From a virus (lineage: Duplodnaviria; Caudoviricetes), in the IMG/VR virus record IMGVR_UViG_3300033121_002239, positions 1-64,000 of that record: a stretch of 64,000 nucleotides of DNA; one strand, 5' to 3'. The notes below the pieces were generated by a model, which saw only the letters and a program-made list of their open reading frames with translations, was not told where the DNA came from and made no database searches. Shown here piece by piece: positions 1 to 53,737 of this stretch (position 1 is its first letter; each line of letters begins with the position of its first letter). The position numbers and the translations under genes are program-made.

Positions 1-290
1 TCCTGCCCCGACGCGACCCCCGTCGTGTTGCCGTCGGTGTCCGTGCCGAGGTTCACCGTGACGTTCGCCGGGACGTTGATCCGCCGACCGAGCGCGTCGT
101 ACGCCACGCCCGCTGCGAGCTGGAGCGTGAGGTTCGGCGAAGACTGCTCCGTGAGCGTGAGACCCGCGGCGAGGCCGTAGCCGAGGAGGTCGGAGACGAT
201 CGCGCGGTCGGCGTTCTCGGCGTTCGATTGCCACGCCGCAACGTCGGTGTGCTCGATTACAAAGTCCCGATGATACGCCTTGAGGTCCAT
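1..290 (-). CDS. Tail fibre / baseplate-attached fibre protein, N-terminal part (runs off left edge)
   Basis: Not in ORF track. ATG at 290 opens MDLKAYHRDFVIEHTDVAAWQSNAENADRAIVSDLLGYGLAAGLTLTEQSSPNLTLQLAAGVAYDALGRRINVP, open to position 1. 'L..AAGVAYDALGRRI.V' is typical of fibre N-termini; directly follows the gpI-like gene and has the late box upstream. Confidence 0.65.
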   Translation of the reverse strand, partial: MDLKAYHRDFVIEHTDVAAWQSNAENADRAIVSDLLGYGLAAGLTLTEQSSPNLTLQLAAGVAYDALGRRINVPANVTVNLGTDTDGNTTGVASGQ

Positions 291-305
291 CGCCCCTCGC
301 GGGCG

Positions 306-313
306 GTCACCCG
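306..313 (-). promoter_or_regulatory. Late box CGGGTGAC
   Basis: 15 nt before ATG 290; overlaps the upstream stop. Confidence 0.55.
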
Positions 314-1350
314 AGGGCGGTGTTGCGACCGAGGCGCGAGCGGCCAAGCACCCACGACGGGTGCCGCGCGTGCGCGTAGTCTAGCGAGACCGTCATCAGG
401 GACGGGCGCATGACCTCGATCACCTGCACGAGGGCGCGGCGCTCGTCGCCCGTGAGCGCGCGCGGCAGGACGAGCGTGAGCGTGAACGCGTCGTCGGCGG
501 GCGTCGCGCCGCGCGCGGATGCGGCGAGTCGCGTGGTGAAGACCTCGGTCGTCGCAAGTTCGAGGCGGTCGCCCGCGGTGAGCGCCTCGCGGCCCTCCCG
601 CCGCCACACCCGCACCACGTCCCCGCGCGTGAGGGCGAAGGCGAGGGTGAGGCTCGTCGTCGAGGTCTCGGACCACTCCGGCGCGTCCGTGCGCAGCCGA
701 TCGACCGACACCACCAGCGTCCCGATCCCCATCGTGTACGAGAAGGGGAGGGAGATCACCGACTCGCCGCCGTAGGCGGTGTATTCGTGGCCGCGCGTGA
801 GGAGCTCGACCTTGCGCGGCTCGACCGCGAGGAAGGCCGTCCGGTCGAGCTCGACGCCGTTGCGCCAGGCCCGCAAGGTCCCCACGTGGGGCGTCGCGAT
901 CCAGCGCGTGTCGGTGACCTCGATGGACGTCTCGCCCCCCGTCGCCGTGTAGCGGAAGGTGAAGCCGCCGAGGTGCGACCGGCCGAGGCGCCACGCCTGC
1001 CCCCGCGTGCCGCGCAGGAACGCCTCCTCGCCGAGGAAGAGGCGCACGGCGTCGAGGAGCCCCGGCACGGTGCCCTTCTCGCGGTAGAGCGGCACGAGGA
1101 GCGCCACGATCTTGCGCTGGAGCGCGACGGGGAGGGTCGTGTCGAGCGTCCAGCCCTTCGCCCGCGCGAGCTCGGGGAGCCACCGCGCCTCGCAGGTGAG
1201 CGGGTTCTGGAGCGTGAGGAGCTTCCCGATGTCGTCGTAGCGGTCGCCGAGCGCGTCGTCGGAGAGGCGCACGAGGGACGCGAGGGGTTCGGTCGGGGCC
1301 TCGCGTCGCCAGAACCGGGGGAGGGCGTCCCAGAGCGTCGGTCGGGCCAT
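307..1350 (-). CDS. Baseplate wedge / phage tail protein (P2 gpI-like)
   Basis: MARPTLWDALPRFWR...WLPELARAKGWTLDTTLPVALQRKIVALLVPLYREKGTVPGL is the gpI/Tail_P2_I pattern; start overlaps the J stop. Confidence 0.75.
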   Translation of the reverse strand: MARPTLWDALPRFWRREAPTEPLASLVRLSDDALGDRYDDIGKLLTLQNPLTCEARWLPELARAKGWTLDTTLPVALQRKIVALLVPLYREKGTVPGLLDAVRLFLGEEAFLRGTRGQAWRLGRSHLGGFTFRYTATGGETSIEVTDTRWIATPHVGTLRAWRNGVELDRTAFLAVEPRKVELLTRGHEYTAYGGESVISLPFSYTMGIGTLVVSVDRLRTDAPEWSETSTTSLTLAFALTRGDVVRVWRREGREALTAGDRLELATTEVFTTRLAASARGATPADDAFTLTLVLPRALTGDERRALVQVIEVMRPSLMTVSLDYAHARHPSWVLGRSRLGRNTALG

Positions 1351-3945: not shown

Positions 3946-4081
3946 CTTCCACGACCCGCGACTCCCCCGTCCCGCGCGGGCGGAGGGTGATCGCGGCCGT
4001 CGTGCTCCGCTCCCCCTGCGTGATCTCCGCGAGGATGCCCTCGAAGTCGAGCACGGTGTATTGCAGGGCGCGAGGGGCCAT
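3935..4081 (-). pseudogene. Chimeric 48-aa mini-ORF: baseplate J N-terminus fused in frame to gp25 C-terminus
   Basis: MAPRALQYTVLDFEGILAEIT (J) + QGERSTTAAITLRPRGTGESRVVEVNG* (gp25 ends AEITQAGRSTTAAITLRPRGTGEARVVEVNSASG). Confidence 0.85.
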
Positions 4082-4096
4082 CGCACCTTGCGGGTG

Positions 4097-4104
4097 GTCA
4101 CCCC
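4097..4104 (-). promoter_or_regulatory. Late box GGGGTGAC
   Basis: 15 nt before the ATG of the J remnant (4081). Confidence 0.6.
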
Positions 4105-5485: not shown

Positions 5486-5965
5486 TCACCTTCCGGCCAG
5501 GACGTCGTCGCGGGAGAGGTCGCCGTTCACCGGGACGTTCTTCCATTCGAGCGTGGCCCGCAGCTCCCCGGGCGTCGTGGTGTCGGGGTCGAACCAGGGC
5601 CCGCTCTTGAGCTCCACGCTCGTGATGATCACGCGCAGCGTTCGGTGGCCGCCGAAGACGAGGAGCACCGGGTGAGGGCCTTGCCGCAGGCGCCCCGACC
5701 CGTCGTAGTCTGGGAGCGGGAGCGCTTCCAACTGGCGCCGGATGCGCTCGATGTCCGCCGCGTCGAGCTCCTGGCGGATGAACACGAGGTCGATCTTGCC
5801 CTCGCGCCCTTTGCCCCCCGTGTAGTGCTGGCGCGGGAAGGAGCCGCCGCGGACCTGCTTCTCCGACCAGTTCGCGCCGACGGTGACCGGGAGGTCCTCG
5901 GGGTTGAACTGCCAGTCGAGGCGCGTCCCATCGATGAGATCGCGCAGGTAGCCCGTGGTCGCCAC
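5486..5965 (-). CDS. Tail tube initiator (CIS tube-like protein)
   Basis: LDWQFNPEDL...GANWSE...QHYTGG...PHPVLLVFG...IITSV. Confidence 0.75.
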   Translation of the reverse strand: MATTGYLRDLIDGTRLDWQFNPEDLPVTVGANWSEKQVRGGSFPRQHYTGGKGREGKIDLVFIRQELDAADIERIRRQLEALPLPDYDGSGRLRQGPHPVLLVFGGHRTLRVIITSVELKSGPWFDPDTTTPGELRATLEWKNVPVNGDLSRDDVLAGR

Positions 5966-5979
5966 GCCCTTCGCCGCGG

Positions 5980-5987
5980 GTCACCCG
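5980..5987 (-). promoter_or_regulatory. Late box CGGGTGAC
   Basis: Intergenic, 14 nt before GTG 5965. Confidence 0.65.
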
Positions 5988-5990
5988 CGG

Positions 5991-7436
5991 CTACTCCTCC
6001 AAGTTGATTGTGAGAAGTTGATCCAGAAGCGTTTGCGGAGAGCCGCCTGAGGCGCCGGGGTTTCCTGTCGTTGGCGTCGGCTGCGCAGCTCCAGTGCGGC
6101 GAGGGTTCTGCCGTCCCGCGTTCACGCCGTCCCGTGAAAGCGCGAACTCGGTCTCGTAGCCTTGCGCGCTGATTGTGTGGCGGCAGTTCTTGACGTACCA
6201 GAGCCCCGCGTCGCGAGCCTCGACACCGAGAACCTTGACGATCATCCCGCGCCGCGCGCGCGGCATCCCGATCACTTTGGCCTCCGCAGTGACCTTGCGT
6301 CGCTCGTGGTGCTTGAACCGCGCGTTCGCCAGTCGTTCGAGATGCTGGCGGGCCGCGGGACCGTTCGGTGCGGCGGCCCCCGCCACGTGCGCGCCGGTCT
6401 GCGCGCCACCGTTGGGCGGTGCGGTCGGAGTCGTGCTTTCGCCCGAAAAGAGGTTGGCGAGGTCCGAGAGAATGTCCCCGCTCTCGGTGCTCACCACAAG
6501 AAGACTTGTATCGTCCTCGGTCGGGCTCGTATTCGAACGCCGGGCCGCGTCGCGCGACGCCTGCCACGCAGCGCGTTGCGCTTCGGGCGTCGCGTTCTGG
6601 AGGTCGGGGTGATCTTCGACGAAGGACGCGATCCCGCGATTCTCGGCGGCCTGCGCGCGCCGACGCTCGGCGGCGAGTCGCCGCGCGGCGAGCGTCTGCC
6701 GGGTGGCCGTCGGGTCGCCTACGGCATGACGGAAGACCTGTCCGGTAGCCGGGTCGTGAAAGAGCGCCACGACGCCCTCGTTCTCCGTCTGCCCCTTCTT
6801 CGTGTCCTCCTTGACCTCGAAAGAGAGCACGTTCGCGTTCCGCCACCCGTAGAGGAGCACGAGCGCGGGCGGCTCCCCCACGGGCGGCTCGCGCACGACG
6901 ACGACGTCGCCCTCCATCTCGACCGAGAGCCCCAGCTCCGCGGAGCGGCGCGTGATCCAGCTCCACGCGCTCTCGTTGTCGATCACCTGCCCGTCGAAGC
7001 GGATCGTGTCCTCCGCCTCGAAGCGCACCGAGAGCCCCGCGTGCTGCGCGACCTCCTCGGCGGCCTCGCGGAAGGTGCGGCCCTCGAAGACGTGGCGGAT
7101 CGCGCCGCGCGAGAGCGAGAGCTCCCGCCCGAACGCCTCGACCGTCACGGTCGCGTCGTCGTAGCTCGGTGCGACTTCGTGGACGATTCCTGCGCGCGGC
7201 GAAGACAGCGTGCCTGGGTAGCCCCACCGCACGCCGATCACCGTCCCGTGCGGCAGGAGCTCTCGCAGTGTGTGGTCTTCATCATCGAGCTTGAGCGTGA
7301 TGTGCGCCGCGAGGGCCTTGCCCTTCTTCTCGCCCTCGTCGACCGTGAGCTCCAACACGCGGCGTGTGAGGTCGATCGGAGCGCGTTGGCCGTCGAGCGT
7401 GACAAAGAGGATCGGGACTTGTTCGAGGACGCCCAC
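5991..7436 (-). CDS. Baseplate hub / late control gene D-like protein
   Basis: N-terminal gpD-like fold (LELTVDE...LKLDD...GVRWGY) and C-terminal G.PRARRGMIVKVLGV...GLWYVKNCRHTISAQGYETEF. Start set at GTG 7436 from the late box and purine tract upstream. Confidence 0.8.
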   Translation of the reverse strand: MGVLEQVPILFVTLDGQRAPIDLTRRVLELTVDEGEKKGKALAAHITLKLDDEDHTLRELLPHGTVIGVRWGYPGTLSSPRAGIVHEVAPSYDDATVTVEAFGRELSLSRGAIRHVFEGRTFREAAEEVAQHAGLSVRFEAEDTIRFDGQVIDNESAWSWITRRSAELGLSVEMEGDVVVVREPPVGEPPALVLLYGWRNANVLSFEVKEDTKKGQTENEGVVALFHDPATGQVFRHAVGDPTATRQTLAARRLAAERRRAQAAENRGIASFVEDHPDLQNATPEAQRAAWQASRDAARRSNTSPTEDDTSLLVVSTESGDILSDLANLFSGESTTPTAPPNGGAQTGAHVAGAAAPNGPAARQHLERLANARFKHHERRKVTAEAKVIGMPRARRGMIVKVLGVEARDAGLWYVKNCRHTISAQGYETEFALSRDGVNAGRQNPRRTGAAQPTPTTGNPGASGGSPQTLLDQLLTINLEE

Positions 7437-7451
7437 GCACCTTCGGCGTGA

Positions 7452-7459
7452 GTCATCCA
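7452..7459 (-). promoter_or_regulatory. Late box TGGATGAC
   Basis: 15 nt before GTG 7436. Confidence 0.5.
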
Positions 7460-7465: not shown

Positions 7466-8659
7466 TTACCGCGAAGGCGGTTCGCGGCGTACGGTCGGCG
7501 TGGTCTCCGTCCAGCCCCACACGCGCACTGCGTCAGGGAGCGAGCGGAACGGACCCGCGATGGTTCCAAGCGGGTCGCCAGGGTTCGCTGCACGCCACGC
7601 CGACCACGCGGCCCACTCCGTCCAGCCCCATGCGCGGGCCGCGTCGAGGAGATTGAAGAGGGGCACGATGATCAGTCCGAGCGGGTCAGCACGGCGCCCG
7701 TTTCGCCACTGCGTCCACGCGGTCAGTGCCGCCGATTGCTCGTTCGCTGTGCCGAAGGGGCCGATGGCGGGCGGCAAGTCCCGACCAGGATTCGCGAGGA
7801 CCCACGCGGTACGCAGGTTCGTAGCGCGGGTGATACACGTAGAGAGCCACGAACTCCACGCCGCCGCTTCGTCCGCCGACGACGCGAAGGAACGGGCCGG
7901 GGGAATGGTCGGCGCGAGGAAAGGAGCGATGATCGTTCCGAGTTGATCCCCAGGGTGTGCTGCGGTCCACGACGTCCAGCGCGACCACTCGTCCATGCTC
8001 TCGGTTGCGTCGGTCGGGTAGCTGAAAGGGGGCGGCGGGGAGGGCTCCGAGGGATGTGCTGCGATCCACGCGGCGCGGAACTCAGCCACGCGGAAGCGGC
8101 ACTGTTGGTAGTAGCTCGCCCACGCGGCATCTTCGGACGAGGCGTACAGGAACGGCCCTGCGGGTGGCGTCGGGGGGCTCGCGAGAGCGGCGGCGGTCCA
8201 GGCGTCGCTGAACGTCGCCGCGATCACGCGGTCTCGGAAGAGACGGGCGGGGGCGACCACGACGTCGACCGTCGTCCCGAACGGGCCAAGGACGGGCGGG
8301 GCGGTGGAACCGGGATGCGCGGCGATCCAGTTCGAGCGATGAATCGTGGCGCGCGAAGCGAGATAGGCCGACTCGTCCACGACGGACGAAACGACCTGAC
8401 GCACGACCCCTGCACGCACATCGACGACGTCGTTCAAGGTCGGGGGATTCGGCGGAGTAGCCGGGGGCGTCCCGGTGATGGGGCCGGGTTGGCCGGGCTC
8501 TGGGTAGTGAGTCACATGTCCGGCCGGGTTGGCGTGCGCGGAGGGGCGCCACACGATCCGCTGGCCTGCGACCGGCGCGGTATCGTGCGGACCATCAGGA
8601 ATCCACTCGCGGTCATACTGCGCACGGACGTACGGGGCACCGGGAACGACGGGGTTCAT
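7466..8659 (-). CDS. Pro/Trp/Ala-rich repeat protein (W-x-A-A-[HN]-P-G...G-P-F repeats), probably a late gene
   Basis: About 5 clear and 2 degenerate repeats; RBS GGAGGAG and late box upstream; no recognisable family. Confidence 0.6.
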   Translation of the reverse strand: MNPVVPGAPYVRAQYDREWIPDGPHDTAPVAGQRIVWRPSAHANPAGHVTHYPEPGQPGPITGTPPATPPNPPTLNDVVDVRAGVVRQVVSSVVDESAYLASRATIHRSNWIAAHPGSTAPPVLGPFGTTVDVVVAPARLFRDRVIAATFSDAWTAAALASPPTPPAGPFLYASSEDAAWASYYQQCRFRVAEFRAAWIAAHPSEPSPPPPFSYPTDATESMDEWSRWTSWTAAHPGDQLGTIIAPFLAPTIPPARSFASSADEAAAWSSWLSTCITRATNLRTAWVLANPGRDLPPAIGPFGTANEQSAALTAWTQWRNGRRADPLGLIIVPLFNLLDAARAWGWTEWAAWSAWRAANPGDPLGTIAGPFRSLPDAVRVWGWTETTPTVRREPPSR

Positions 8660-8673
8660 ACTCCTCCGGAGCG

Positions 8674-8681
8674 GTCACCGC
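8674..8681 (-). promoter_or_regulatory. Late box GCGGTGAC
   Basis: 14 nt before ATG 8659. Confidence 0.6.
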
Positions 8682-14240: not shown

Positions 14241-14280
14241 CACCCGTCCCGTGCGCGTCAACGTGGCGCGTGGTTGGCGT

Positions 14281-16805: not shown

Positions 16806-17756
16806 CTACCACGCGAGGCCGCTCCCGAGGAAGGCGGTGAGGCGCTGCGCGTCGGTCATGACGGCCGTGAGCTCCGCTTCGCGCTGTGCAAGCACGTTCC
16901 GCGGCGACGGCCGCTCCGCCCACGTGCGGTCCACGTCGAGGAGCGTTTCGCGGAGGAGGTCGAGCTCGACCGCACGCAGCGCGCCCTCGCCCACGGGCAG
17001 GGCCGCGAGGCCGAGGAGCCGGTTGCGGATGGCGTCGAGGACACCGCCCGCGCCGTTGCCGAGCGTGAGGGCGCTGCGGATCTCGGGCACGGCGCGCTTC
17101 AGGTGCACGAAGGGGAGCACCAGCAGGCTCTCGTCCTGGGAGCCCGTGCCGCCCTCCGTGGTGAAGTCGAGGTCGTCGTAGACCTCGCTGTAGGAGCCGA
17201 GGCGGAGGATTACCTTGCGGTGCGTGGCGTCGCCGTCCGACGCCGCGTCGACCTCGACACTCACGCGCCCGCCCGCGATGCCGATCTCGCGGGCCTCGAT
17301 GCGCGCGACGGGCGCTCCGCCGCCGTCGAGGATCGTGTCCCAGGCGCGCGCGGGCGCCGGGTCCGTGAAGGGGTCGGGGAAGGGCACCGAGTGCTCGCCG
17401 AGGACGATGGGCCCGCGGGTCGTCTCGGCGATGCGCGGCGTGAGGGTCGTGCCGTAGCTCGACTGGTAGACCACCTGCGCGGCTTCGAGGTAGCGGCAGA
17501 GGTTCGTGGCGCGCGTCCAGACCGGGCCCATCGCCGTCGTCCACGCGGTGAGCGCCTCATTGTAAGCCGTATCATCCGCAACGACCGTCGCGCGGAGGCG
17601 TGCGTTGTCGGCGTCGTACGCCGCGCCGATCGCGTTCAAGCGCGCGAGGAGCCCCTGGCCGTAGAGCTTCGCGGGCGCGTCGGCCGCGAGGGAGAGGTGC
17701 GCGAGGGCCGTCACCAGCGCGTCGCGCGTCGTCGTCCAGACGATGACCGAGGGCAC
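16806..17756 (-). CDS. Hypothetical late protein with a possible sheath-domain-like segment
   Basis: Late box upstream; central ARIEAREIGIAGGRVSVEVDAASDGDATHRKVILRLGSYSEVYDDLD resembles an inserted sheath domain. Confidence 0.55.
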   Translation of the reverse strand: MPSVIVWTTTRDALVTALAHLSLAADAPAKLYGQGLLARLNAIGAAYDADNARLRATVVADDTAYNEALTAWTTAMGPVWTRATNLCRYLEAAQVVYQSSYGTTLTPRIAETTRGPIVLGEHSVPFPDPFTDPAPARAWDTILDGGGAPVARIEAREIGIAGGRVSVEVDAASDGDATHRKVILRLGSYSEVYDDLDFTTEGGTGSQDESLLVLPFVHLKRAVPEIRSALTLGNGAGGVLDAIRNRLLGLAALPVGEGALRAVELDLLRETLLDVDRTWAERPSPRNVLAQREAELTAVMTDAQRLTAFLGSGLAW

Positions 17757-17770
17757 GCTTCTCCCCTCCG

Positions 17771-17786
17771 GTCAACCTCGGATGAC
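17771..17786. promoter_or_regulatory. Back-to-back divergent late boxes (AGGTTGAC on minus, CGGATGAC on plus)
   Basis: 14 nt before GTG 17756 and 17 nt before the tape-measure ATG 17804. Confidence 0.6.
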
Positions 17787-34455: not shown

Positions 34456-36101
34456 GCCCCTGCGTCGGTGTCACCCGCGGCGGGGGCTTCGGCGCCGTCG
34501 CCTCCACCGCCCTCCGTGGGCGTCGTCGCGCCGTCGCCCGTGTCCGCGCTCGACCCCGCGACCTTCGTCACCGCGCCGAGGGCCTTCGTCACGTCCGCGG
34601 GCAGGAGGAGGTTCTTGGTGAGCGCGTCGAGGAGCACCGCGGGCACCTTGCGCCAGCTCTCGGGCGACGAGAGTTCGACGCCGAGGAGCGGCTCCAGAAG
34701 GTCGGCGACGTTCGCCACCGTGAGGACACCCGCCTTGATGCCGACCTCGATGACCTTCAGGAGCTGCTCCTCCGAGAGGAGCGGCGGACCCTTCGTGATC
34801 ACGCGGCAGTGCCGCGCGCCGAGTTCGGGAAGGACGAAGCTGTTCAAGAGTTCGTCCTCGTCCGCGCGCTCCGGCGCGAACACCTGCTCCTCGGCGACTT
34901 GTCTGGCCGCTTGCGCGGTAGCGAAATTGTACTCCTCGCTGCGGCCCATGAAGATCGGGGGGAGGCGGAAGGCCATCGCCACGTCCTCGACGCAGCGGGT
35001 GCGGTATTCGAGGAACTGCGCGTCGGTCTGCGCGGCCTTGGTGAGGTCCTTGAAGTCGATCCGCGGCACGGCGCCCGGCCGTGCGATCGCCATCGGGTCG
35101 GCGGGGTCGGAGGTCGTGTCGGACTTCGCTTCGAGGATGAGCGGGACGTGGCGGTTCGCGCGCCCCTTCACCGTCGCGAAGTGCTCCTTGAGACGTTCCA
35201 CCACGTCATCGTCGAGCGTCGCGCCCTGCACGAGGATCGCCATCGGGGGGATGGCGTTGTTGTCGAAGATATCGACGTTCACCTCGCCCGCCGCGGCGCG
35301 ACCGGCCGCGCTCGACGCCGCGCCGCGCCAGCATGGCTTTCCGTACACGCTCCCGGGCTCGTACCGGGTGAGGTTCAAGACCTCCGACGCGAGGTCCTGG
35401 GGCGATGCGTTCGGGTCCTCGTCGCCCGTGTCGGCGCGCAACGGCCTCGGGTCGCCCAACTCCTTGAACCACACCGTTCGGCCGTTGACGTACTGCGCGA
35501 AGCGCCGGAAGCGCCGGTACTGCGTGACCTTCTGGAAGGCGCCGTTCGCGTCGCGCACCCACCGCGCGGTCTCGACGATCGCGCGGTCCCACCGGGTCTT
35601 GCGCATCGTGTAGGTGGGGCAGTGGTCGAGCCCCACGAGGCGCCCCTTCGCGTCGCGCAGGACCTCGTAGTAGCCGTCGCCGAACACCGCCAGGTCCTTC
35701 CGCACACGCTTGCGGGCGGCGGTGAAGCTCCCGATCGACGACGCGGCGTCGAACCAGGTCTTGAGCTTCTGGCGCTCCGCCTCGATCGCGTCGCTGAGGT
35801 TCGGGGGCGGCGCGGCGAGAAGGGGCACGAACTGCACGCCGAACGAGCACGTGTTGACGGTCATCGCGTCGACGGCCGACTGGAGCACGTCCGAGTCGTC
35901 ATAGCGGCGCTGCACGACGGCGTAGGGGTAGGGCGGCTCGATGAGTCCGTGAAGGCCGTACTGATCGGCGAAGGGGTCGAGCTGCTTCGACGCGCCCGCC
36001 TTGGCCGCCTCGGGCGTGACGCCGGTCTCCAGGGGGAGGATGCGGACCTTGACGGTGGCGGTGGGCTTCGCGCGCTTCTGCGATCGTCGGGGCTTCGTCA
36101 C
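34452..36101 (-). CDS. Portal protein (PBSX family)
   Basis: GLIEPPYP...FGDGYYEVLRD.KG.L..LDH.P..TMR...F.NNAIPPMAILV.G...FRLPPI..G..E.YN.ATA. Confidence 0.9.
   Translation of the reverse strand: MTKPRRSQKRAKPTATVKVRILPLETGVTPEAAKAGASKQLDPFADQYGLHGLIEPPYPYAVVQRRYDDSDVLQSAVDAMTVNTCSFGVQFVPLLAAPPPNLSDAIEAERQKLKTWFDAASSIGSFTAARKRVRKDLAVFGDGYYEVLRDAKGRLVGLDHCPTYTMRKTRWDRAIVETARWVRDANGAFQKVTQYRRFRRFAQYVNGRTVWFKELGDPRPLRADTGDEDPNASPQDLASEVLNLTRYEPGSVYGKPCWRGAASSAAGRAAAGEVNVDIFDNNAIPPMAILVQGATLDDDVVERLKEHFATVKGRANRHVPLILEAKSDTTSDPADPMAIARPGAVPRIDFKDLTKAAQTDAQFLEYRTRCVEDVAMAFRLPPIFMGRSEEYNFATAQAARQVAEEQVFAPERADEDELLNSFVLPELGARHCRVITKGPPLLSEEQLLKVIEVGIKAGVLTVANVADLLEPLLGVELSSPESWRKVPAVLLDALTKNLLLPADVTKALGAVTKVAGSSADTGDGATTPTEGGGGDGAEAPAAGDTDAGA
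34470..34477 (-). promoter_or_regulatory. Late box CGGGTGAC
   Basis: Inside the portal 3' end, 14 nt before protease GTG 34455. Confidence 0.6.
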
Positions 36102-36115
36102 GCCCCTTCGGGCGA

Positions 36116-36123
36116 GTCACCCG
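36116..36123 (-). promoter_or_regulatory. Late box CGGGTGAC
   Basis: Intergenic, 14 nt before the portal GTG. Confidence 0.65.
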
Positions 36124-36124: not shown

Positions 36125-36595
36125 TCAGGTGTAGTCCGACGAGACGGTCGTGCGCAGGGTGTAGCCCGCGCGGGTCGTCGCGGCGGCGCGCAGGGCCACC
36201 ACCTCGGTGCGCAGCGCTTCGGCGTAGCTGCGGAGCTGCACGACCTCGAGGCGCAGCGCTTCGAGGTAGTTCCGCGCCTGCACGACCTCGGCGCGCAGGG
36301 CGTTGATCGTGTTGCGGTCGGCGGTGTTCTCGGGGCCTGTCGGCGCGGCGGGGTCGCCGTACGCGGAGAGGGCGCTGTTCAGCGCGGCGTCGATCGTCGG
36401 GACCGTGGTGCCCGCGGGCGAGGTGACGGTCGGGACCGCGACGCCCGCGGGCGAGGTGATCGTCGAGGGGGCGGTGCCCTTCAGTCGGTTCACGTCGTAC
36501 GCGAGGCCGTTGAGGAGCGTCTTGACGTCGGGCGAACCGTGGCCCGGGTTGAGGCCCGCGCCGCCCGTACCGAAGTTCTGGGGGATTGCGACCAT
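36125..36595 (-). CDS. Putative head fibre/decoration protein with a heptad coiled coil
   Basis: ALRAEVVQARNYLE/ALRLEVVQLRSYAE/ALRTEVVALR 14-residue repeat; late box upstream. Confidence 0.5.
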   Translation of the reverse strand: MVAIPQNFGTGGAGLNPGHGSPDVKTLLNGLAYDVNRLKGTAPSTITSPAGVAVPTVTSPAGTTVPTIDAALNSALSAYGDPAAPTGPENTADRNTINALRAEVVQARNYLEALRLEVVQLRSYAEALRTEVVALRAAATTRAGYTLRTTVSSDYT

Positions 36596-36628
36596 GGGGT
36601 GGGGTGATCCTTTCGGACCTTCCGCCCG

Positions 36629-36636
36629 GTCACCCC
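36629..36636 (-). promoter_or_regulatory. Late box GGGGTGAC
   Basis: 33 nt before ATG 36595; overlaps the upstream stop. Confidence 0.5.
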
Positions 36637-41927: not shown

Positions 41928-42583
41928 GCGGCCGCACCGACGGGCGTGAGGTGGACGAGGAGGTAGCGCCACACGGAGCTGCGCGTGCCCCGGTAGCGGT
42001 GGTTGCGCGTGAGGTTCACCCAGACGCGGGCGCCGGCGGTGAGCCGCTCGCGGTACTTCTCCTGATCGCAGACGATCCAGAAGCGGCGGACGCGTCGCGT
42101 GCCGTCGATGCCGCGCGCCCGCACGGTGAGGTGGACGACGGGCACCTGCACTTCGAGGTCGCCGTTGCGATCGACGACGGTCTCCTGCCGCACCTCGTCG
42201 AGCGTCCCGACGGCGGTGATCCACCAGCCGTCTTCCGGGGCCGGTGGCGGCGGCGCGGGGGGCGAGGGCGGGACCGCGGCCGGATCGACCCGACCGAGCG
42301 CGCGGAGGAACACCCGGTCGGCTGCGTCGAACGTCGTGCGCAGCGCCTCGGCGAGGTACGACGCGAGGGACTTCTGACACCCCGTCGCGTGGGTGCCGCC
42401 GAGGGCGACGAGACGCTCGCGCCACGCGAGCCAGAGGCGCACGGCGGCGTCGAGCGAGCGCACCTTCGAGGCGTCGGCGTGGAAGGCCAGCACCGCATCG
42501 GGCGGGACGTCAAGGTCGTGGGAAGGGGCGGGGAGAGAGCCCGCGGGCGGGTCGGGGATCGGATCGAAGTCGAGGTCGTTCAT
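41924..42583 (-). CDS. Hypothetical protein
   Basis: 219 aa with a Pro-rich linker and beta-rich C-terminus. Confidence 0.6.
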   Translation of the reverse strand: MNDLDFDPIPDPPAGSLPAPSHDLDVPPDAVLAFHADASKVRSLDAAVRLWLAWRERLVALGGTHATGCQKSLASYLAEALRTTFDAADRVFLRALGRVDPAAVPPSPPAPPPPAPEDGWWITAVGTLDEVRQETVVDRNGDLEVQVPVVHLTVRARGIDGTRRVRRFWIVCDQEKYRERLTAGARVWVNLTRNHRYRGTRSSVWRYLLVHLTPVGAAA

Positions 42584-42628
42584 GCCCCGCGCAGGAGCAC
42601 GGAGCGGGCCACGGTCACCCTCTCACAC

Positions 42629-44472: not shown

Positions 44473-45188
44473 CCGGCGTCCCGCTTCGGGGCCTTGTTGC
44501 GCTCGGCGATCATGTCCACGACCGCCATCTGCACGTCGAGCGGGACCACGAGGTCGGGGGCGGCAGGCGCGGGCGTCGTGACGGCCGACTCCTCCCGGTT
44601 GTGCGCGCCCGAGCCAGGCGACGCCTGCGCGGCGCTCACACCGAGGACGAGGCGCAAGGTCTCGTAGAGCGTCCGCTGCGCGTTCGACAGCTCCTGTACC
44701 GTGCGCGATGGGATCGGGCGGCGCGGCTTCGGGGCCTTCGGCGCGGCGGGGTCGGGGGCCGCGGGCTCCGTCGGGACGAGCGGCTCACTCACGTCCGCGA
44801 AGAGGCTCTTGTCGGGCGAGGCGGGCAGGAGCTCCCGGTAGCAGCGGGCGGTGTACTCGATCTCCTGAAGGAGGAGCGTGGTGTTCAAAACCACCTGCGC
44901 CGCCTGGGTTCCCAGGATTTCAGAGGCGTTTTCAATGTAGCGCGCGGACTGCGCGTCCACCTCGGTGCGAAGGGTGCGCTTCCACGCCTCGCGCTTCACC
45001 GTCCAGCCGTCGCGTTTGGCGCGGGCGGCGAGGGTGGGGTGAGGGAGCTTGAAGCGGGGGGCGAGGTCGGCGAGGGAGGGCCAGACGCGCTCGGTGACCT
45101 TGGTCGCGTTCGGGGGGATCTCTCCCTGCACGTAGAGGCGCTCCACCTCCTCCCACGGGATATCCTTGCGTCGTACCTGCTTCGCCAC
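44469..45188 (-). CDS. terS: Terminase small subunit
   Basis: WEEVERLYVQG...SLADLA.RF.L...TL..RAKRDGWT HTH; coupled to terL. Confidence 0.75.
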   Translation of the reverse strand: MAKQVRRKDIPWEEVERLYVQGEIPPNATKVTERVWPSLADLAPRFKLPHPTLAARAKRDGWTVKREAWKRTLRTEVDAQSARYIENASEILGTQAAQVVLNTTLLLQEIEYTARCYRELLPASPDKSLFADVSEPLVPTEPAAPDPAAPKAPKPRRPIPSRTVQELSNAQRTLYETLRLVLGVSAAQASPGSGAHNREESAVTTPAPAAPDLVVPLDVQMAVVDMIAERNKAPKRDAG

Positions 45189-45203
45189 GCCCTTCGCGCG
45201 CGC

Positions 45204-45211
45204 GTCAACGC
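45204..45211 (-). promoter_or_regulatory. Late box GCGTTGAC
   Basis: Intergenic, 15 nt before the terS GTG. Confidence 0.55.
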
Positions 45212-45566: not shown

Positions 45567-47205
45567 GGCGCCGAGCGGGGGTCAGGGGACGGCCGGGAAG
45601 AGCATCATGCGGATCGCGAAGGAGCTCGCCGCGCGCACCGAGGGCCAGCCGCAGCGGGCGCCCGCGTAGGTCGGGGTCGCGAGGCGGGGCGTGGGGTTGA
45701 GCGGGGTGTTCGCCGGGATGCGCACGCCCTTGTCGCCCGTGGCCGGGGACGGCTTGAACGTGAGTTCGTACGCCGCCGAGGCGCCCTCGATGAGGAGGGC
45801 GTAGCTCATGCCCTGGAACTCCGCGGGCGGCGTGATCGTCGTCCACGCGGTCGGGTCGGCGTCGGTCGTGACCTCGACGACGAGGGGGTAGGTGGGGGCG
45901 GAGGCTTCGCGGGCGTTGTCCTCGTAGTTCGCCATGGCGCCTCTTCGAGGGGGTCACCCGCGGCGAGTACTTTCGAAGGCCGACGGGATCACCGGAGCGG
46001 TTCGGGCGACGGCTCCGCGTGCACGACCTCGCCGTGCTGGACGTGGTAGACCCACGTCGAGAGGCGCGCACGGCGGGACCGAACAGCTCCAACTGAGGCA
46101 GATGTTCCGCGCGTGACGAACGACGATGCGACGCGCCGCCGGGTGTCGCGCGAGCCATCCCGCGCAGGTGGGTCGCGACCGCGACGCCCATCACCTCCGC
46201 GAGCAGCGGCGGCACCGCGTTGCCGATGAGCGCCGTGATCTCCTCCTGGGTGCCCTTGAACCGGAAGTCGTCCTCGAACGTCTGGAGCCGCGCGCCTTCG
46301 CGCAGCGTGATGTTCCGGTCCTCGGACGGGTGCGCGAACATGCCGCGCGTGAAGCTGTCGAACCGCGCGGTGATCGTCGCGCCGGGCGCGTCGGCGTCCA
46401 GGCGCCCGTAGACGTTGCGGTGTCCAATGCGGTCGGCGCCCTGCTTGTGACACTCGACGCGGAGGTCCACGGGCAGGCTCTCGAACCCCTTGCCCGGCGG
46501 GATCAGGCGCAGGCGCTCCAGGTTCTTCTTGGACAGCCGCATCCGGTAGTGCAGCGGGTCGCTCGCGCTCGCGCGGTCGGGCGCCGGAGGCGGGAGGTCG
46601 CCAATCGCATCCCGAACCGTCCGAAAGGTCCCCTCCTCGTGCGTCGCCGGGGGCGGGTCGAAGGGCGCCACGTCGGCCGTGCGCCAGCCGAAGCACAGCA
46701 CGCGACGGCGCCGCTGCGGCACCCCGTAGTCCGCGGCGTTGATGAGCGCGGCGCGGTAGAGGTAACCGCCGTGAGCCAGCGTCGCGCCGAACCGCTTCAG
46801 CACCTTCCGACCGCGCTGCCCGAGGAGGCCGGGCACGTTCTCCATGATGAACATGCGCGGACGGACCTCGCAGACGAACCGCCCGAAGGCGAAGACCAGA
46901 TCGTTGCGGGGGTCTTCATCCTCCCCGCGACGCTGAATCGAGAACCCCTGACATGGAGGACCGCCCACGATGAGGTCGACGGGGACCGGCTCGTGTCGGA
47001 TGCCCCGCCAGAAGGACTCAGCGGTGAGCGTCCCCACGTCCGCGCGGAGCACGGGGTGCTTGAAATTCAGCTCGTAGTTCTCTACCGCGACCTTCCACGC
47101 GTCCACCGCACCGATCACCTCGAACCCGGCGCGCATCAGGCCCACGGAGAACCCCCCGGCGCCGGAAAACAGGTCGATAGCAGTGAGAGGTGACTTCGGG
47201 TCCAT
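45466..47205 (-). CDS. dcm: DNA cytosine-C5 methyltransferase M1; homology ends near 46070 and the rest is probable read-through
   Basis: IDLFSGAGG, GGPPCQGFS, MENVPG, GVPQRR.R, LREGARLQTF, GNAVPP. After PQLELFG the frame runs over two other genes. Confidence 0.9.
   Translation of the reverse strand: MDPKSPLTAIDLFSGAGGFSVGLMRAGFEVIGAVDAWKVAVENYELNFKHPVLRADVGTLTAESFWRGIRHEPVPVDLIVGGPPCQGFSIQRRGEDEDPRNDLVFAFGRFVCEVRPRMFIMENVPGLLGQRGRKVLKRFGATLAHGGYLYRAALINAADYGVPQRRRRVLCFGWRTADVAPFDPPPATHEEGTFRTVRDAIGDLPPPAPDRASASDPLHYRMRLSKKNLERLRLIPPGKGFESLPVDLRVECHKQGADRIGHRNVYGRLDADAPGATITARFDSFTRGMFAHPSEDRNITLREGARLQTFEDDFRFKGTQEEITALIGNAVPPLLAEVMGVAVATHLRGMARATPGGASHRRSSRAEHLPQLELFGPAVRASRRGSTTSSTARSCTRSRRPNRSGDPVGLRKYSPRVTPSKRRHGELRGQRPRSLRPHLPPRRRGHDRRRPDRVDDDHAARGVPGHELRPPHRGRLGGVRTHVQAVPGHGRQGRAHPGEHPAQPHAPPRDPDLRGRPLRLALGARGELLRDPHDALPGRPLTPARRRAPVAPDRPARPLADARPGGARSRRLGCRPRRP
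45582..45935 (-). CDS. Small late (probably virion) protein
   Basis: Late box and purine tract upstream; beta-rich sequence. Confidence 0.55.
   Translation of the reverse strand: MANYEDNAREASAPTYPLVVEVTTDADPTAWTTITPPAEFQGMSYALLIEGASAAYELTFKPSPATGDKGVRIPANTPLNPTPRLATPTYAGARCGWPSVRAASSFAIRMMLFPAVP
45953..45960 (-). promoter_or_regulatory. Late box CGGGTGAC
   Basis: Intergenic, 17 nt before ATG 45935. Confidence 0.65.
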
Positions 47206-49500: not shown

Positions 49501-49773
49501 ATGACGACCTCGAAGAAGGCCCCCGACGTGGCGGAGCGGCTCAAGGCGGCGCGCGAGGGGCGCGGGCTCACCGTCGCCGAGCTCGCGCGGCGCGCGCGGG
49601 TCGAGGGCGAGCCGATCTCCCGGCAGGCCGTGATGAAGATCGAGGCGCGCGACGTGACGAACCCCGGCGTCCTCACCGTCGCGGGCCTCGCCGAAGCGCT
49701 CGAAGTGCCCGCGGCGTGGCTCGCGTACGGCGTCGGCCCCACCCCCGCGGGGTTGACCGCCGCGAAGGCGTGA
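49501..49773 (+). CDS. XRE-family HTH transcriptional regulator
   Basis: AERLKAAREGRGLTVAELARRA...ISRQAVMKIE...NPGV.TV..LAEALEVPAAWLAYG. Confidence 0.85.
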   Translation: MTTSKKAPDVAERLKAAREGRGLTVAELARRARVEGEPISRQAVMKIEARDVTNPGVLTVAGLAEALEVPAAWLAYGVGPTPAGLTAAKA

Positions 49774-49847
49774 CGCGGCGTGGAGCAGGCTGGTAGCTCG
49801 CCGGGCTCATAACCCGAAGGCCGTAGGTTCAAATCCTACCGCCGCGA
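49774..49847 (+). tRNA. tRNA-Met(CAT), initiator-like, with an atypical C1:G72 pair; CCA not encoded
   Basis: Cloverleaf CGCGGCG / GAGC-GCTC D stem / CCGGG-CTCATAA-CCCGA / GTAGG-TTCAAAT-CCTAC / CGCCGCG-A; anticodon at 49808-49810. Confidence 0.92.
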
Positions 49848-50108
49848 CCCAAGCCCCAGGACCGAGCTTCTACCGCACGGGAGCGGCGTGTGAGGACCTG
49901 GGGCTTCTCCCGCTCCTCATCGCCCGACCGGCAAGACGCCTGCACGCAGGCGCTCCCCGCGAACAGGCCGCCCCGACGGCCTGGGGCGCACACGAAAGAA
50001 CCCCCCGCGCGTCGCCCGAGACCCCGAGGTTGCTCATCGAGCATGGGGCCAAGCGGGCGAAGAAGCGCGCGGGGGGATCGGTCCTTTTCCTGCACGCCGT
50101 CGTTCGTC

Positions 50109-51521: not shown

Positions 51522-52328
51522 ATGCGGTTGCCGCTCTCCTGCCTCTTCCTCGCCCTCACGCTCGCCGCCTGTTCGTCCGATCACGCCGCGCCCCCGCCAC
51601 CCACCGACGCGGGCCCCGAGGTCGGCGGAGACGTACTGATTCTGCCCGACGTGGGGACGGACACGGGCACGGACACCGGGGCGGACCTCGGCGACGTCGA
51701 CGCGGGCCTCGGGGACGTGGCGACCGATCAGGAGCTCCCGCTCGACGCAGGCCCCGAGACGAGCACCCCCGACGCGGGCGGTGAGGATCGGGTGGACGTC
51801 GGCGGCCCGCTCGACGTGCCCGAGGACCGGCCGCAGCTCCCGACGGACACCGGGTCGGACACGGGCGGGGACGTCGGGGTCGACGTCGTCGCCGATCGAC
51901 CGACGTGCACCGAGGGAACGACCGAGTGTTCGAACGCGACGACGATGCGGGTGTGCCGGGGCGGGAGCTGGACGTCGATCGCGTGCGGGCGCTCGGCGAG
52001 CGGGACGCAGGAGGTGTGCACCGCGAGTTCGCGCGCGTGCGGCCTCGCGTCGCCCCCCTGCACGGCCGACGCGCAGTGCGGCTACGGGTACGTGGCCTGC
52101 GTCGCCGCCGTGTGCCTCTGGCGGGGGACGGTGGCCTGCACCGACGACCTCGCGTGCGAGGACGTGTACGGGGCGGGGGCGCCGTTCCGGTGCGTCGCCG
52201 CGACGTTCCACGGCCAGGCCGTGCGGGTCTGCCAGGAGATGAGCTACGCGCCGCGGCCGTGCGTGCTCGATCGCCAGTGCCCGACCGGCAGGCGGTGCGA
52301 GGTCGCGACGGGCCTGTGCGTGCGGTGA
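51522..52328 (+). CDS. Cys-rich lipoprotein 3 (lacks the N-terminal 6-Cys domain)
   Basis: MRLPLSCLFLALTLAAC lipobox; the 18-Cys C-domain aligns with lipoproteins 1 and 2. Confidence 0.85.
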   Translation: MRLPLSCLFLALTLAACSSDHAAPPPPTDAGPEVGGDVLILPDVGTDTGTDTGADLGDVDAGLGDVATDQELPLDAGPETSTPDAGGEDRVDVGGPLDVPEDRPQLPTDTGSDTGGDVGVDVVADRPTCTEGTTECSNATTMRVCRGGSWTSIACGRSASGTQEVCTASSRACGLASPPCTADAQCGYGYVACVAAVCLWRGTVACTDDLACEDVYGAGAPFRCVAATFHGQAVRVCQEMSYAPRPCVLDRQCPTGRRCEVATGLCVR

Positions 52329-52329
52329 G

Positions 52330-52974
52330 CTACGGCAGGAGGAGGTCGTCGGCGCCCTCGGTGATCGTCCCGTCGCACTGGACGGGCGCGGTCGTGGTGA
52401 GGGTGGCGGGGCTTCCGCCGACGGTGCCCGTGAAGGTGGTGCCGAGGGGGATCGTGACGCGGACGGCGTGACCCTCGCGCGCCGCGCGGTGCGCGCCGCC
52501 CTTGATCGTCACCACCTTTGCGTCGAGCGTGAGGTCGTCGAGGTCGAGCGTGACGGGCTTCTCCGTCGAGACCTCGAGGTCGCCGTGCTCCTTCTCCAGC
52601 ACCTTCACGCTGCGGCCGCGCACGAGGAGACTCTTGGCCGGGTAGCGGTCGCGCGTCGCGCGGGTCGAGGACTTCACGTCGGGATCGACCTCGGCGGCGA
52701 GCATCGGCCCCGCCATCCACACGGGCCGCTCCGGGTCGCCGTCGAGGAACATCACCGCGACCGTCGCGCCGACCTCGGGCACGAGGAAGGTGCCGCGCGC
52801 GACGCGGGCGTCCTTCCCGTACGACTGCCCGATCGCGGGCACCCACGCGGGGAGCGGACGCGTCTGGTGGATCGCCGGGACGAGGATCTTCAGACGCCCG
52901 CGCTGTTCGGGGTCGGCGCGGTCGCGCACCGTCCCGAGCGTCACGCCGAACCGACGGGGGCCTTCTTCACCCAT
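52330..52974 (-). CDS. Baseplate central spike gpV/gp5 (OB-fold)
   Basis: GTVRDRADPEQRGRLKILVP...GTFLVPEVGATVAVMFLDGDPERPVWM; C-terminal AAREGH.V...GTITEG. Confidence 0.88.
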   Translation of the reverse strand: MGEEGPRRFGVTLGTVRDRADPEQRGRLKILVPAIHQTRPLPAWVPAIGQSYGKDARVARGTFLVPEVGATVAVMFLDGDPERPVWMAGPMLAAEVDPDVKSSTRATRDRYPAKSLLVRGRSVKVLEKEHGDLEVSTEKPVTLDLDDLTLDAKVVTIKGGAHRAAREGHAVRVTIPLGTTFTGTVGGSPATLTTTAPVQCDGTITEGADDLLLP

Positions 52975-53737
52975 GGTGTTCGTCCTTCTGCCCCTTCGGA
53001 CGGCCGTCGACCAACCGCACGGGCCCCGGGCGGCCGAGGAGCGGGCGGAGCGTGCGGATCGCGGCCCAGACGACCTTATGGATGGCCTGGCGCGAGACGC
53101 CCCGCCGCTCGCCGATCTCCTTGCGGCTCTTGCCGCTCAGAAACATCTTCAGGACCTCGCGCTGCGGTTCGGTGAGGAGACCCGGCGTCTCGACGAGTGC
53201 GAGGAGCCGCCGGCCGCCGCACGTCTTGAGGAGCGACCGCCACCGATCGTCCGTCTCGGTGCCCGCGAAGGGGTTCTCGGGCTCGTCGGCCCACTCCGCC
53301 GGGATCGTGAGAAACGCCTCGTCGTGCCCGCCGCCGGTCATCAGCGCCGGGGAGGAGACCTCGTTGTAGGCGCGCACCTCTTCGGGCGGCAGGAGCCGCG
53401 TGAGGAGCTGGCACGGCGCGCGGCAGGTGGGGCGCTCACGACACCCCTCGCAGGGCTTCGTCGGGTCGGGGCCGCCACGATCCACGCGCGCGAGCGGGAG
53501 GCGCGGGCGCGTCGGGGGGCGGCGCCACGCGAGGAGGTCGCCCTGTTCGGGGACGCGGTGCGCGTCGAGGTAATCCTTCAGCCACGCACCGAGGCCGAGG
53601 ACGACGACCGTCCGCACGACCTCCCGGCGCTTCGAGCGGCGAAGGGGGCGTGCGGCCGTCTCGACCGCCTCGGGCGCGACGACGAACCACCCGAAGTACG
53701 CCTGACTCGTTGTGGGCGCGCGTCGCATCGGCGTCAT
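52967..53737 (-). CDS. Cys-cluster plus sigma70 region-4/LuxR-type HTH protein; candidate late activator
   Basis: CEGCRERPTCRAPC; LTEPQREVLKMFLSGKSRKEIGERRGVSRQAIHKVV; last regulator of the replication operon. Confidence 0.7.
   Translation of the reverse strand: MTPMRRAPTTSQAYFGWFVVAPEAVETAARPLRRSKRREVVRTVVVLGLGAWLKDYLDAHRVPEQGDLLAWRRPPTRPRLPLARVDRGGPDPTKPCEGCRERPTCRAPCQLLTRLLPPEEVRAYNEVSSPALMTGGGHDEAFLTIPAEWADEPENPFAGTETDDRWRSLLKTCGGRRLLALVETPGLLTEPQREVLKMFLSGKSRKEIGERRGVSRQAIHKVVWAAIRTLRPLLGRPGPVRLVDGRPKGQKDEHHG

Follow-up and report, generated by a model that had tools for sequence, protein, structure and literature searches.

In an uncultured temperate phage and in its distant relatives, some 20 structural genes and a tRNA gene are directly preceded by a module of about 22 bp, which, from its sequence, is predicted to be most likely a late promoter of an unusual kind, specific to the phage. 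The window, that is, the whole stretch of 64,000 nt analysed here, had been described in a sequence-only reading as carrying a 'single-element' signal. Instead, the module has three conserved parts: the box GGKTGAC, a CGAGG-like purine block (CGAGG or GAAGG) after 6-8 variable bases and, following NG, a pyrimidine-purine (Y|R) step 8 nt further on. The box contains TTGAC or GTGAC and therefore resembles a -35 hexamer (TTGACA in the sigma-70 housekeeping promoter). Motif, site positions, conservation and avoidance within genes are observed; from them, we infer a promoter function, a start point and a reader.

The TGAC box in the window is real and well above chance level. Sixteen copies of GGGTGAC occur on the two strands of the window, and 10 of them lie in sense orientation 8-40 nt upstream of a start, compared with 0.33 expected; seven copies are 14-17 nt before a start, which bears out the suggested association with starts. 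For the looser word G[GT]TGAC, 12 of 80 copies are 13-17 nt before a start. The reverse-complement words GGTCACC and GGGTCAC are never found near starts in the window under the same gene calls, which were self-trained, made without the motif and independent of it. With a weight matrix built from other lineages only, about 15 window sites equal or exceed the second-best score of a reversed-sequence control.

At all 22 coordinates listed by the sequence-only reading, which denote the 3′ C of the box and are on the minus strand except for 17779, a TGAC-type box does stand on the gene strand at the distance claimed. The accompanying consensus was too narrow. As a strict pattern, GG[GTA]TGAC-N6-8-GA[AG]GG gives only 8 matches (6 on the minus and 2 on the plus strand), so that loosened variants are needed to reach about 22 sites: CGGTGAC (8674, 23999), CGTTGAC (25088, 45204), GGTAGAC (28481), GCGTGAC (32769) and GGTCGAC (53006). 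The variants at 53006 and 28481 are present but weak, and the box at 42614 lacks the second block. The capsid site had been misplaced at the weak GCGTGAC of 32769; in fact, the gene is preceded at a distance of 74 nt by the box 32827-32821. Three further sites had been missed (14263-14257; 33797-33791; 49751-49757 on the plus strand). The sites and associated features are as follows.

288..312, minus: GGGTGAC-N15-ATG, short class (PWM score 19.9); the gene runs off the left end of the window, and the TGA within the box ends the preceding gene 307-1350.
4079..4103, minus: GGGTGAC-N15-ATG before a 48-aa ORF, 3935-4081 (PWM 16.3).
5963..5986, minus: GGGTGAC-N14-GTG before 5486-5965 (PWM 16.9).
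7434..7458, minus: variant GGATGAC-N15-GTG before the tail/baseplate gene 5991-7436; strong sites at the G002 and G005 orthologues.
8657..8680, minus: variant CGGTGAC-N14-ATG before the probable gene 7466-8659, a weak gene call.
14241..14263, minus: variant CGTTGAC-N13-GTG before 13932-14243; orthologues score 20.3 and 24.1.
17754..17777, minus: GGTTGAC-N14-GTG before 16806-17756, back to back with the next site.
17780..17806, plus: variant GGATGAC-N17-ATG before the tape-measure gene 17804-20458, within the left arm of an inverted repeat.
23979..24005, minus: variant CGGTGAC-N17-GTG before a 5′ stub of the tape-measure gene, a duplicate lying in the repeat's right arm.
25070..25094, minus: variant CGTTGAC-N15-ATG before 24173-25072 (PWM 14.7); orthologues score 20-22.
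25579..25617, minus: long class, GGGTGAC-N29-ATG with GGTGAGGAG as its SD; the gene that follows, 25111-25581, probably encodes the tail tube (identified by its position after the sheath gene).
27816..27855, minus: long class, GGGTGAC-N7-GAGGGGC-GGAGGA-N10-ATG, before the tail sheath gene (PWM 21.9, the best of the window).
28463..28487, minus: weak variant GGTAGAC-N15-GTG before 27857-28465; doubtful, because the orthologues have no site.
31138..31162, minus: GGGTGAC-N15-GTG before 30493-31140 (PWM scan and orthologue comparison).
31721..31765, minus: long class, GGTTGAC-N7-GAAGCGT-CGAAAGGA-N13-ATG, before 31157-31723 (PWM 21.3).
32744..32827, minus: box 32827-32821, a structured leader of 74 nt and an SD, before the major capsid gene 31787-32746 (PWM 15.6); capsid orthologues have sites scoring about 20, at 29-66 nt.
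33769..33797, minus: box, GGAGGAG and in-frame ATG (33771) inside the protease/scaffold gene, probably a nested scaffold start; equivalent sites in L015, L093 and L095.
34453..34476, minus: GGGTGAC-N14-GTG before the protease gene 32803-34455, within the 3′ end of the portal gene.
36099..36122, minus: GGGTGAC-N14-GTG before the portal gene 34452-36101 (PWM 16.3).
36593..36635, minus: long class, GGGTGAC-N6-GAAGGTC-CGAAAGGA-N12-ATG, before 36125-36595 (PWM scan).
42581..42620, minus: GGGTGAC box 30 nt before 41924-42583, an uncertain member.
45186..45210, minus: variant CGTTGAC-N15-GTG before the terS-like gene 44469-45188 (PWM scan); terL, the next gene, has no box of its own.
45933..45959, minus: GGGTGAC-N17-ATG before 45582-45935 (PWM scan).
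49751..49773, plus: GGTTGAC-N6-GAAGGCG-T|G, ending 2 nt before tRNA-Met (PWM 18.7).
49774..49849, plus: the tRNA-Met (CAT) gene served by the module (tRNA match, 63.3 bits).
52967..53737, minus: candidate reader of 256 aa, containing a 4-Cys motif as well as an HTH that resembles sigma region 4 or LuxR (sequence and model).

The module recurs in five phage lineages that share only 40-50% capsid identity. The box is nearly strand-exclusive there, with counts of 16:1, 12:1, 6:0, 4:0, 16:3, 16:2 and 8:2. Its presence is kept at the orthologous sheath, tube, capsid, protease and portal genes, and its absence is kept at terL and at 29293-30176. Moreover, the heptamer is avoided within genes relative to synonymous-codon shuffles, both in sense (5 observed, 16.6 expected) and in antisense orientation (4 observed, 24.2 expected). 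GTCACCC is the 35th most depleted among 4947 heptamers in genes, and the ratios are near 1 for most of its single-base neighbours; GGCTGAC and GGATGAC are also depleted. This avoidance could also mean a DNA-binding or restriction-type signal.

Several observations suggest that the module is probably a late transcription-start signal, specific to the phage and acting on DNA. In the divergent gap 17757-17803 of the window (47 nt), two boxes stand back to back, 2 nt apart, with no other promoter sign and no room for one. Likewise, back-to-back boxes occupy the 91-nt gap 11655-11745 of G005, at the head of an opposite-strand cassette, and no other promoter is present. No sigma-70-type promoter was found in the 13 kb of late genes at 24000-37000, and no TAnnnT -10 hexamer lies 16-18 bp past the box, where 17 bp on is already at or past the start codon. 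The avoidance of the heptamer on both strands of genes and the position of the Y|R step (below) point the same way. Copies are found ahead of most virion genes or short gene groups, one tRNA gene (box 16 nt ahead) and some inserted cassettes, so that the late region would be read from about 20 close starts and not from one operon promoter. Against the promoter reading, the geometry of the module fits no known bacterial promoter class.

Two start points may be considered. In version (b), which is slightly preferred, the first transcribed base would be the Y|R purine, located 15-16 nt past the box. Short-class mRNAs would then be leaderless, with RNA beginning at ATG or GTG, long-class RNAs would begin at the SD, and about 2 nt of leader would precede the tRNA. 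In version (a), the start would be the G of GAGG, 7-8 nt past the box, leaving leaders of 7-8 nt. The ultra-short leaders proposed earlier thus correspond to one of the two, and late messages are possibly leaderless. The Y|R step coincides with a start codon, an SD or the tRNA end. In the short class of the five lineages, the start codon is 14-15 nt past the box at 32 of 39 sites and is ATG or GTG at all 39. G at -2 (77%) and C at -1 (85%) are more frequent there than in other genes (29% and 57%), and a well-spaced SD-like word (-17 to -5) is rarer (21% versus 47%); several sites of L093 have neither an SD nor the purine block. The short class thus combines ATG or GTG starts with the lack of a functional SD, as leaderless genes do. 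At the equivalent position of 31 non-short sites, a pyrimidine (28/31) is followed by a purine (27/31), irrespective of what comes next, and the SD of long-class sites starts 14-17 nt past the box. Each version has a point against it. Under (b), the -35-like box would span positions of about -22 to -16, and a TA-rich -10 element would be missing. Under (a), the SD of the short class would be only 1-4 nt from the start codon, a closeness of the purine block already pointed out in the sequence-only reading and valid for this class. Leaderless genes of mycobacteria carry a TANNNT -10 hexamer before the start (PMC4633059). Leaderless genes of Actinobacteria likewise use RTG starts only, and in them, as here, an SD and a promoter element immediately before the start codon exclude each other (PMC4633059); in the module, however, that element is GGKTGAC-N7-CGAGG, without a TA-rich hexamer. 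Leaderless translation from GTG is efficient in mycobacteria (PMC4633059) but not in E. coli, a reservation about version (b).

Avoidance on both strands would suit any DNA-binding site, and the phage has an HTH protein available. It is nevertheless rather unlikely that the module is the site of a phage DNA-binding protein, either an activator or an elongation-blocking repressor in lysogeny, with transcription starting elsewhere. Cluster A stoperators are immunity-repressor sites that also serve as operators at early promoters (PMC9283540). In the genomes of these mycobacteriophages, promoters and short intergenic spaces contain over 20 asymmetric 13-mers whose orientation follows transcription (PMC9283540), and the many asymmetric sites of the present phage show the same kind of distribution and orientation. 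However, the boxes of the two divergent gaps stand alone, no sigma-70-type promoter was found in the 13 kb of late genes and, unlike a stoperator, the module keeps a fixed distance (within 1 nt) to a downstream start codon, SD or tRNA end and includes the Y|R step, none of which a roadblock needs. The box was also rejected as an immunity-repressor operator: the divergent control region near 48880-49090 has no box, and the palindromic operator TGTGGACAAGTCCACA lies there instead, upstream of 48624-48878.

Quite unlikely, too, is an RNA-level signal, in which the box and a hairpin in a long late transcript would form an endonuclease processing site or a 5′ stabiliser and so make the mRNA and tRNA 5′ ends. 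A functional element always adjoins the module downstream, the 22 nt past the TGA fold somewhat better than shuffles (-6.6 versus -5.3 kcal/mol, p=5e-4) and the loops are frequently GAAG, GCGA or GCAA. But native 5′ and 3′ arms (-6.6 kcal/mol) fold no better than between-site chimeras (-6.0 kcal/mol, p=0.10), so that site-specific covariation is lacking, and the orthologous change of CTCGCCT to CCGTCCT in G001 is uncompensated. Moreover, some boxes head opposite-strand units without an upstream gene on the same strand, the strong antisense avoidance is unexpected for an mRNA signal and no Rfam family matches. The same lack of covariation weakens the very improbable case that the box is an upstream or split SD brought near the start by a spacer hairpin, or a regulator or coupling site of the SAS type. 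GGGTGA is complementary to the 16S 3′ region (GGGUGA pairs with UCACCU), a linear SD, GAGGTGACCG-ATG, is present at 54459-54468, and coupling is suggested by the box TGA, which at about one third of sites terminates the preceding gene in frame. However, at 34476 the box is within the upstream coding frame, at 5986, 7458 and 36122 it is not the stop, and the dominant form in L093, GGTTGAC, is a poor partner for the anti-SD. The module was discarded as a Shine-Dalgarno or translational operator on account of the tRNA site, the long-leader sites with their own SD (in G002 and G003, the box is 59-90 nt upstream of starts bearing an AAGGAG-type SD) and the failed chimera control. Thus, between the promoter and the translational regulator initially proposed, the promoter is the better supported, and the regulator finds no support because the module also precedes a tRNA gene. 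A precedent for such a regulator is the SAS/ESAS of Cluster K mycobacteriophages, a short asymmetric repeat of putative function, present in 11-19 copies in one orientation directly upstream of start codons, conserved across subclusters and sometimes containing the upstream stop codon (PMC3203893). The module shares these traits of asymmetry, orientation, position, conservation and occasional stop codon. Yet SAS is a 13-bp GGGATAGGAGCCC with an SD core, 3-7 bp from the start of non-structural genes only (PMC3203893); the box is not an SD and lies 13-17 or more than 30 nt from the starts of structural genes and a tRNA gene. The module was therefore rejected as a Cluster K SAS by sequence, distance and gene class.

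For the promoter reading, a reader is needed. Four records, 21-78% complete, yielded neither a sigma region 2 nor an RNA polymerase of the T7 type, and the single-subunit RNA polymerase family PF00940 has no match at E<=1 in G000-G003, although the control genomes have none either. All scanned ORFs of more than 450 aa are other enzymes or virion proteins. The likeliest reader would therefore be the polymerase of the host, with a phage factor redirecting it. As a protein that might bind the -35-like box (TTGAC/GTGAC), the best candidate is encoded at 52967-53737, with a region-4/LuxR-like HTH at residues about 185-235 and a 4-Cys motif. Pfam and the model detect no sigma region 2 in it, and it was rejected as a sigma factor, being an HTH protein only. 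Of the two sigma-4 HTH readers put forward earlier, it alone stands, as Pfam and PHROGs find no HTH or sigma signature in 28628-29263. No homologue was detected in G002 or G005, both incomplete records. Its L095 homologue is just upstream of terS/terL, a position matching that of late regulators of the RinA/Ltr super-family; among these, the Ltr proteins of Gram-positive siphoviruses act as activators of a single promoter ahead of terS (PMC3753634, PMC3152322). In contrast, about 20 sites run through the late region here, and the likeness noted is one of position.

T4-type late promoters consist of TATAAATA, read by gp55 with gp33/gp45. The module resembles them in being short, specific to the phage, devoid of a canonical -35/-10 pair and repeated ahead of many late genes, in the many closely spaced late transcription units and, under version (a) only, in its distance of about 7 nt from the start. 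It differs in its unrelated, GC-rich sequence with the second block CGAGG and the Y|R step; moreover, the four records yielded neither a gp55-like protein nor one with sigma region 2, and the phage is temperate, with a serine recombinase in G001. With T7-like promoters, in which a contiguous conserved block of about 20 bp extends into +1 and the initial sequence is purine-rich, the comparison is mixed: GGTGAC-N6-GAAG resembles the SP6 promoter core, but the spacer is variable and the purine block is missing at several L093 sites. Elsewhere in the phage, a canonical sigma-70 promoter, TTGACT-N16-TATAGT, is present at 10019-10046.

The box observation is confirmed. At all 22 places named in the sequence-only reading, a TGAC-type box is present on the strand of the gene and at the distance claimed; the coordinates refer to the 3′-terminal minus-strand C of each box. 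The literal consensus has only 8 matches, so the list depends on variants. Relative to gene starts called independently of the motif, 10 of the 16 copies of GGGTGAC, a form of the heptamer GGKTGAC, are found in the sense orientation 8-40 nt before a start (0.33 expected), 7 of them at 14-17 nt. The reverse-complement words are never near the same set of starts in the window. Further box sites were also found:

14263, box
32827, the actual site of the capsid gene, which lies 74 nt ahead of it
33797, within the protease/scaffold gene and accompanied by an in-frame ATG (33771)
49751, before tRNA-Met

At the internal site (window 33769-33797, minus strand), the box is combined with GGAGGAG and the in-frame ATG within the 550-aa protease gene, and counterparts are present in the relatives L015, L093 and L095. 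Here the box probably serves as the separate start signal of a nested scaffold protein.

The window comprises the initial 64 kb of a linear IMG/VR virus record of 73 kb (CheckV completeness 68%), with a GC content of about 71% and about 80 genes, mostly on the minus strand, as called by self-trained codon scoring. Products recognized with PHROGs and Pfam include portal, protease, HK97-type capsid, tail sheath, tape measure, terminase large subunit, DnaB helicase and DNA methylases; the close relative G001 additionally encodes a serine recombinase, DnaG primase and DpdA. Judged by this gene content, the phage is a temperate myovirus. Seven relatives were gathered by capsid searches:

G001/L001, capsid identity 94%, a 91.9-kb record
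L091, capsid identity 93%
G002/L003 and G003/L004, capsid identity 49%
L093, capsid identity 50%
L095, capsid identity 47%, within the 449-kb metagenome contig Ga0208628_1000005
G005/L015, capsid identity 40%

No DNA similarity to the nearest cultured phages extends beyond 111 bp, and capsid identity to them is about 30% or below; therefore, the phage has no studied relative. Two scans of genome contigs found no prophage relative.

GGKTGAC is almost strand-exclusive in all seven relatives, with strand counts of 16:1, 12:1, 6:0 and 4:0, compared with 3-6 per strand for the reversed control word, and further counts of 16:3, 16:2 and 8:2. A weight matrix trained solely on G002, G005, L093 and L095 ranks the window sites at the top. 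In most lineages the signal is kept gene by gene, before sheath, tube, the gene after tube, capsid, protease, portal, 30493-31140 and a baseplate gene, and in all lineages it is absent before TerL, 29293-29793 and 29790-30176. The signal is legible from sequence alone and is kept across lineages whose capsids are just 40-50% identical.

The aligned sites share no conserved sequence upstream of the box. Downstream lies a purine block, at +15 to +19 counted from the box start, and alignment on this block gives a module of the form GGKTGAC, N6-7, CGAGGNG, Y, R. What adjoins the module varies. At 39 short-class sites in five lineages it is the start codon, 14-15 nt after the box in 32 of the 39, and the distance from block to start is 8 in 24 of 32 short sites. 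At these sites position -2 is G in 77% and position -1 is C in 85%, the values for other genes being 29% and 57%. In the long class it is the Shine-Dalgarno sequence, which begins 14-17 nt after the box, and in one case it is the 5′ end of a tRNA, 16 nt after the box. In a stretch of G005 (L096, 11619-11654, minus strand), a box heads an inserted cassette, and 15 nt after this box comes a mini-ORF of 11 codons (MNISATGDEDR), the TGA of which overlaps the ATG of the next gene.

Our best reading, which we hold to be rather probable, is that the module is a late transcription-start signal. The heptamer is avoided inside genes on both strands, with 5 copies versus 16.6 expected in sense and 4 versus 24.2 in antisense, relative to synonymous-codon shuffles. 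Among 4947 testable heptamers, GTCACCC ranks 35th and GTCAACC 88th in depletion, while their one-base neighbours are mostly near 1. Antisense avoidance is expected of a promoter and not of an mRNA signal, which points to a start signal at the DNA level. In a divergent gap of 47 nt in the window, a minus-strand box (17777) and a plus-strand box (17780) are separated by 2 nt. In G005 a cassette on the opposite strand interrupts the order portal-protease and opens with a box; the 91-nt divergent gap at its head contains the two outward-facing boxes, GC-rich filler and nothing else. No sigma-70-type promoter was found in the 13-kb head-tail region. A textbook one, TTGACT-N16-TATAGT, is present at 10019-10046 (plus strand of the window), ahead of plus-strand accessory genes; therefore, the host housekeeping consensus is ordinary and the late module is something else.

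A 119-nt inverted repeat, 92% complementary (window 17783-17901 / 23884-24002), surrounds about 6 kb with the tape-measure gene, which lies on the strand opposite to the other late genes. Both arms contain a box, a start codon and identical first codons (MFDDDELDIG...); the segment is therefore either invertible or rearranged. The most depleted heptamer cores versus synonymous shuffles in the coding regions of G000 (apparently the window's own record), G002, G005, L093 and L095 include the restriction-site-like palindromes GCCGGC, CAGCTG, TCCGGA, CTCGAG and GGTACC. GGCTGAC has zero copies in the entire window.

Other readings fit less well. The TGA of the box coincides with an upstream stop codon at only about one third of the sites and is elsewhere intergenic or within the upstream frame, so the box is not a stop-codon artefact. 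A Shine-Dalgarno role is contradicted, as is the translational operator initially proposed as the alternative, by the tRNA site and by sites in G002 and G003 located 59-90 nt upstream of starts that have canonical AAGGAG sequences of their own. A split Shine-Dalgarno bridged by a hairpin cannot account for the tRNA site, the long-leader sites or the GGTTGAC forms, and this idea is rejected. Pairs convincing by eye (CGCCC/GGGCG, CACCCC/GGGGTG, GTGCC/GGCAC) suggested hairpin covariation, and native sites do fold better than shuffles (p=5e-4). However, they do not beat chimeras joining the 5′ half of one site to the 3′ half of another (native -6.6 vs chimera -6.0 kcal/mol, p=0.10); therefore, the module consensus is merely self-complementary. 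The sole Rfam match at a permissive threshold was the tRNA. Among promoter classes, the sigma-54 (GG-N10-GC) and ECF-type (-35/-10, spacer of 16-17) geometries both misfit the spacing of the sites aligned by hand. The incomplete records yielded neither a T7-like phage RNA polymerase nor a sigma region 2; their large ORFs are other enzymes.

If the module is a start signal, transcription could begin either at the G of GAGG, 7-8 nt after the box, or at the R of the Y|R step. The former corresponds to the usual distance between a -10-type element and the start, and the arrangement is reminiscent of the SP6 pattern, GGTGAC-N6-GAAG. We lean to the latter because the Y|R step is conserved even without a start codon after it (Y at 28 and R at 27 of 31 non-short sites, irrespective of what comes next), because several short-class sites of L093 have neither a purine block nor any Shine-Dalgarno, because a usable Shine-Dalgarno is rare in short-class genes (21% vs 47% in other genes), and because short-class genes start with ATG or GTG only. 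As a rule, leaderless translation in mycobacteria likewise uses these two start codons only (PMC4633059). Against a start at the R, a box at about -22 to -16 without a -10 fits no known bacterial promoter class. The tRNA-Met(CAT) (window 49774-49849, plus strand) is much like a bacterial initiator tRNA: it begins with CGCGG and has GGG/CCC beside the anticodon loop. Its positions 1 and 72 are able to pair (C:G), unlike those of E. coli tRNAfMet, which has a C-A mismatch at 1/72. If late mRNAs lack leaders, this tRNA may be of relevance.

Two sigma-4 proteins had been proposed to read the box. A sigma-region-4-like HTH is indeed present in 52967-53737, but 28628-29263 has no such signature. Four cysteines are invariant in the small family of the former (38 representatives), and the C-terminal HTH of this family gives weak but consistent matches to the sigma region 4, GerE and YlxM families. 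The predicted structure of 52967-53737 (mean pLDDT 68.9) is confident only for the 4-Cys motif and the HTH, and Foldseek matches to sigma region 4 and LuxR domains all have E above 0.06. The L095 homologue lies directly upstream of terS/terL, the classical location of late activators (PMC3753634). It is plausible that this region-4-type HTH binds the TTGAC-like box.

The known phage-specific late promoters come from a handful of cultured model phages. In working, the module is closest to T4-type late promoters, which likewise comprise many copies of a short phage-specific element; in distribution, it is closest to Cluster K SAS and Cluster A stoperators (PMC3203893, PMC9283540). However, it fails the defining features of each. 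Within a limited literature search, we found no published description of the module, and the motif strings matched only primers and noise. A more far-reaching possibility, which we regard as doubtful, is an undescribed promoter architecture of a whole uncultured temperate myovirus lineage: GGKTGAC at about -22 to -16, CGAGG at about -8 to -4, Y|R initiation and no -10 hexamer, the host RNA polymerase being reprogrammed by a small 4-Cys/sigma-region-4-like phage protein to give leaderless ATG/GTG mRNAs for most virion proteins and a tRNA almost without 5′ leader. If transcription starts at the start codon, the module would be a compact promoter that makes the expression of essential virion genes leaderless in a GC-rich host, and the question would be by what means RNA polymerase melts DNA that lacks a TA-rich -10. 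For annotation of this uncultured phage group, the module marks exact gene starts and transcription-unit boundaries, and it is a portable 22-bp candidate expression signal.

Several other features of these genomes may be mentioned. DpdA (deazapurine-in-DNA; stretch L013 of G001, 12231-13235, minus strand), a PAPS-reductase-type gene (window 61251-62774, minus strand) and the several DNA methylases suggest that the genome of the phage is heavily modified. In G002, an intein (Hint plus LAGLIDADG homing endonuclease) lies within a 1692-aa DUF6094 methyltransferase-type protein (stretch L010, 2372-7450, plus strand). Stretch L098 of G005 carries two IS605 OrfB/TnpB (Cas12f-like) gene copies with identical Pfam scores, at 1128-2402 (minus strand) and 12490-13773 (plus strand).
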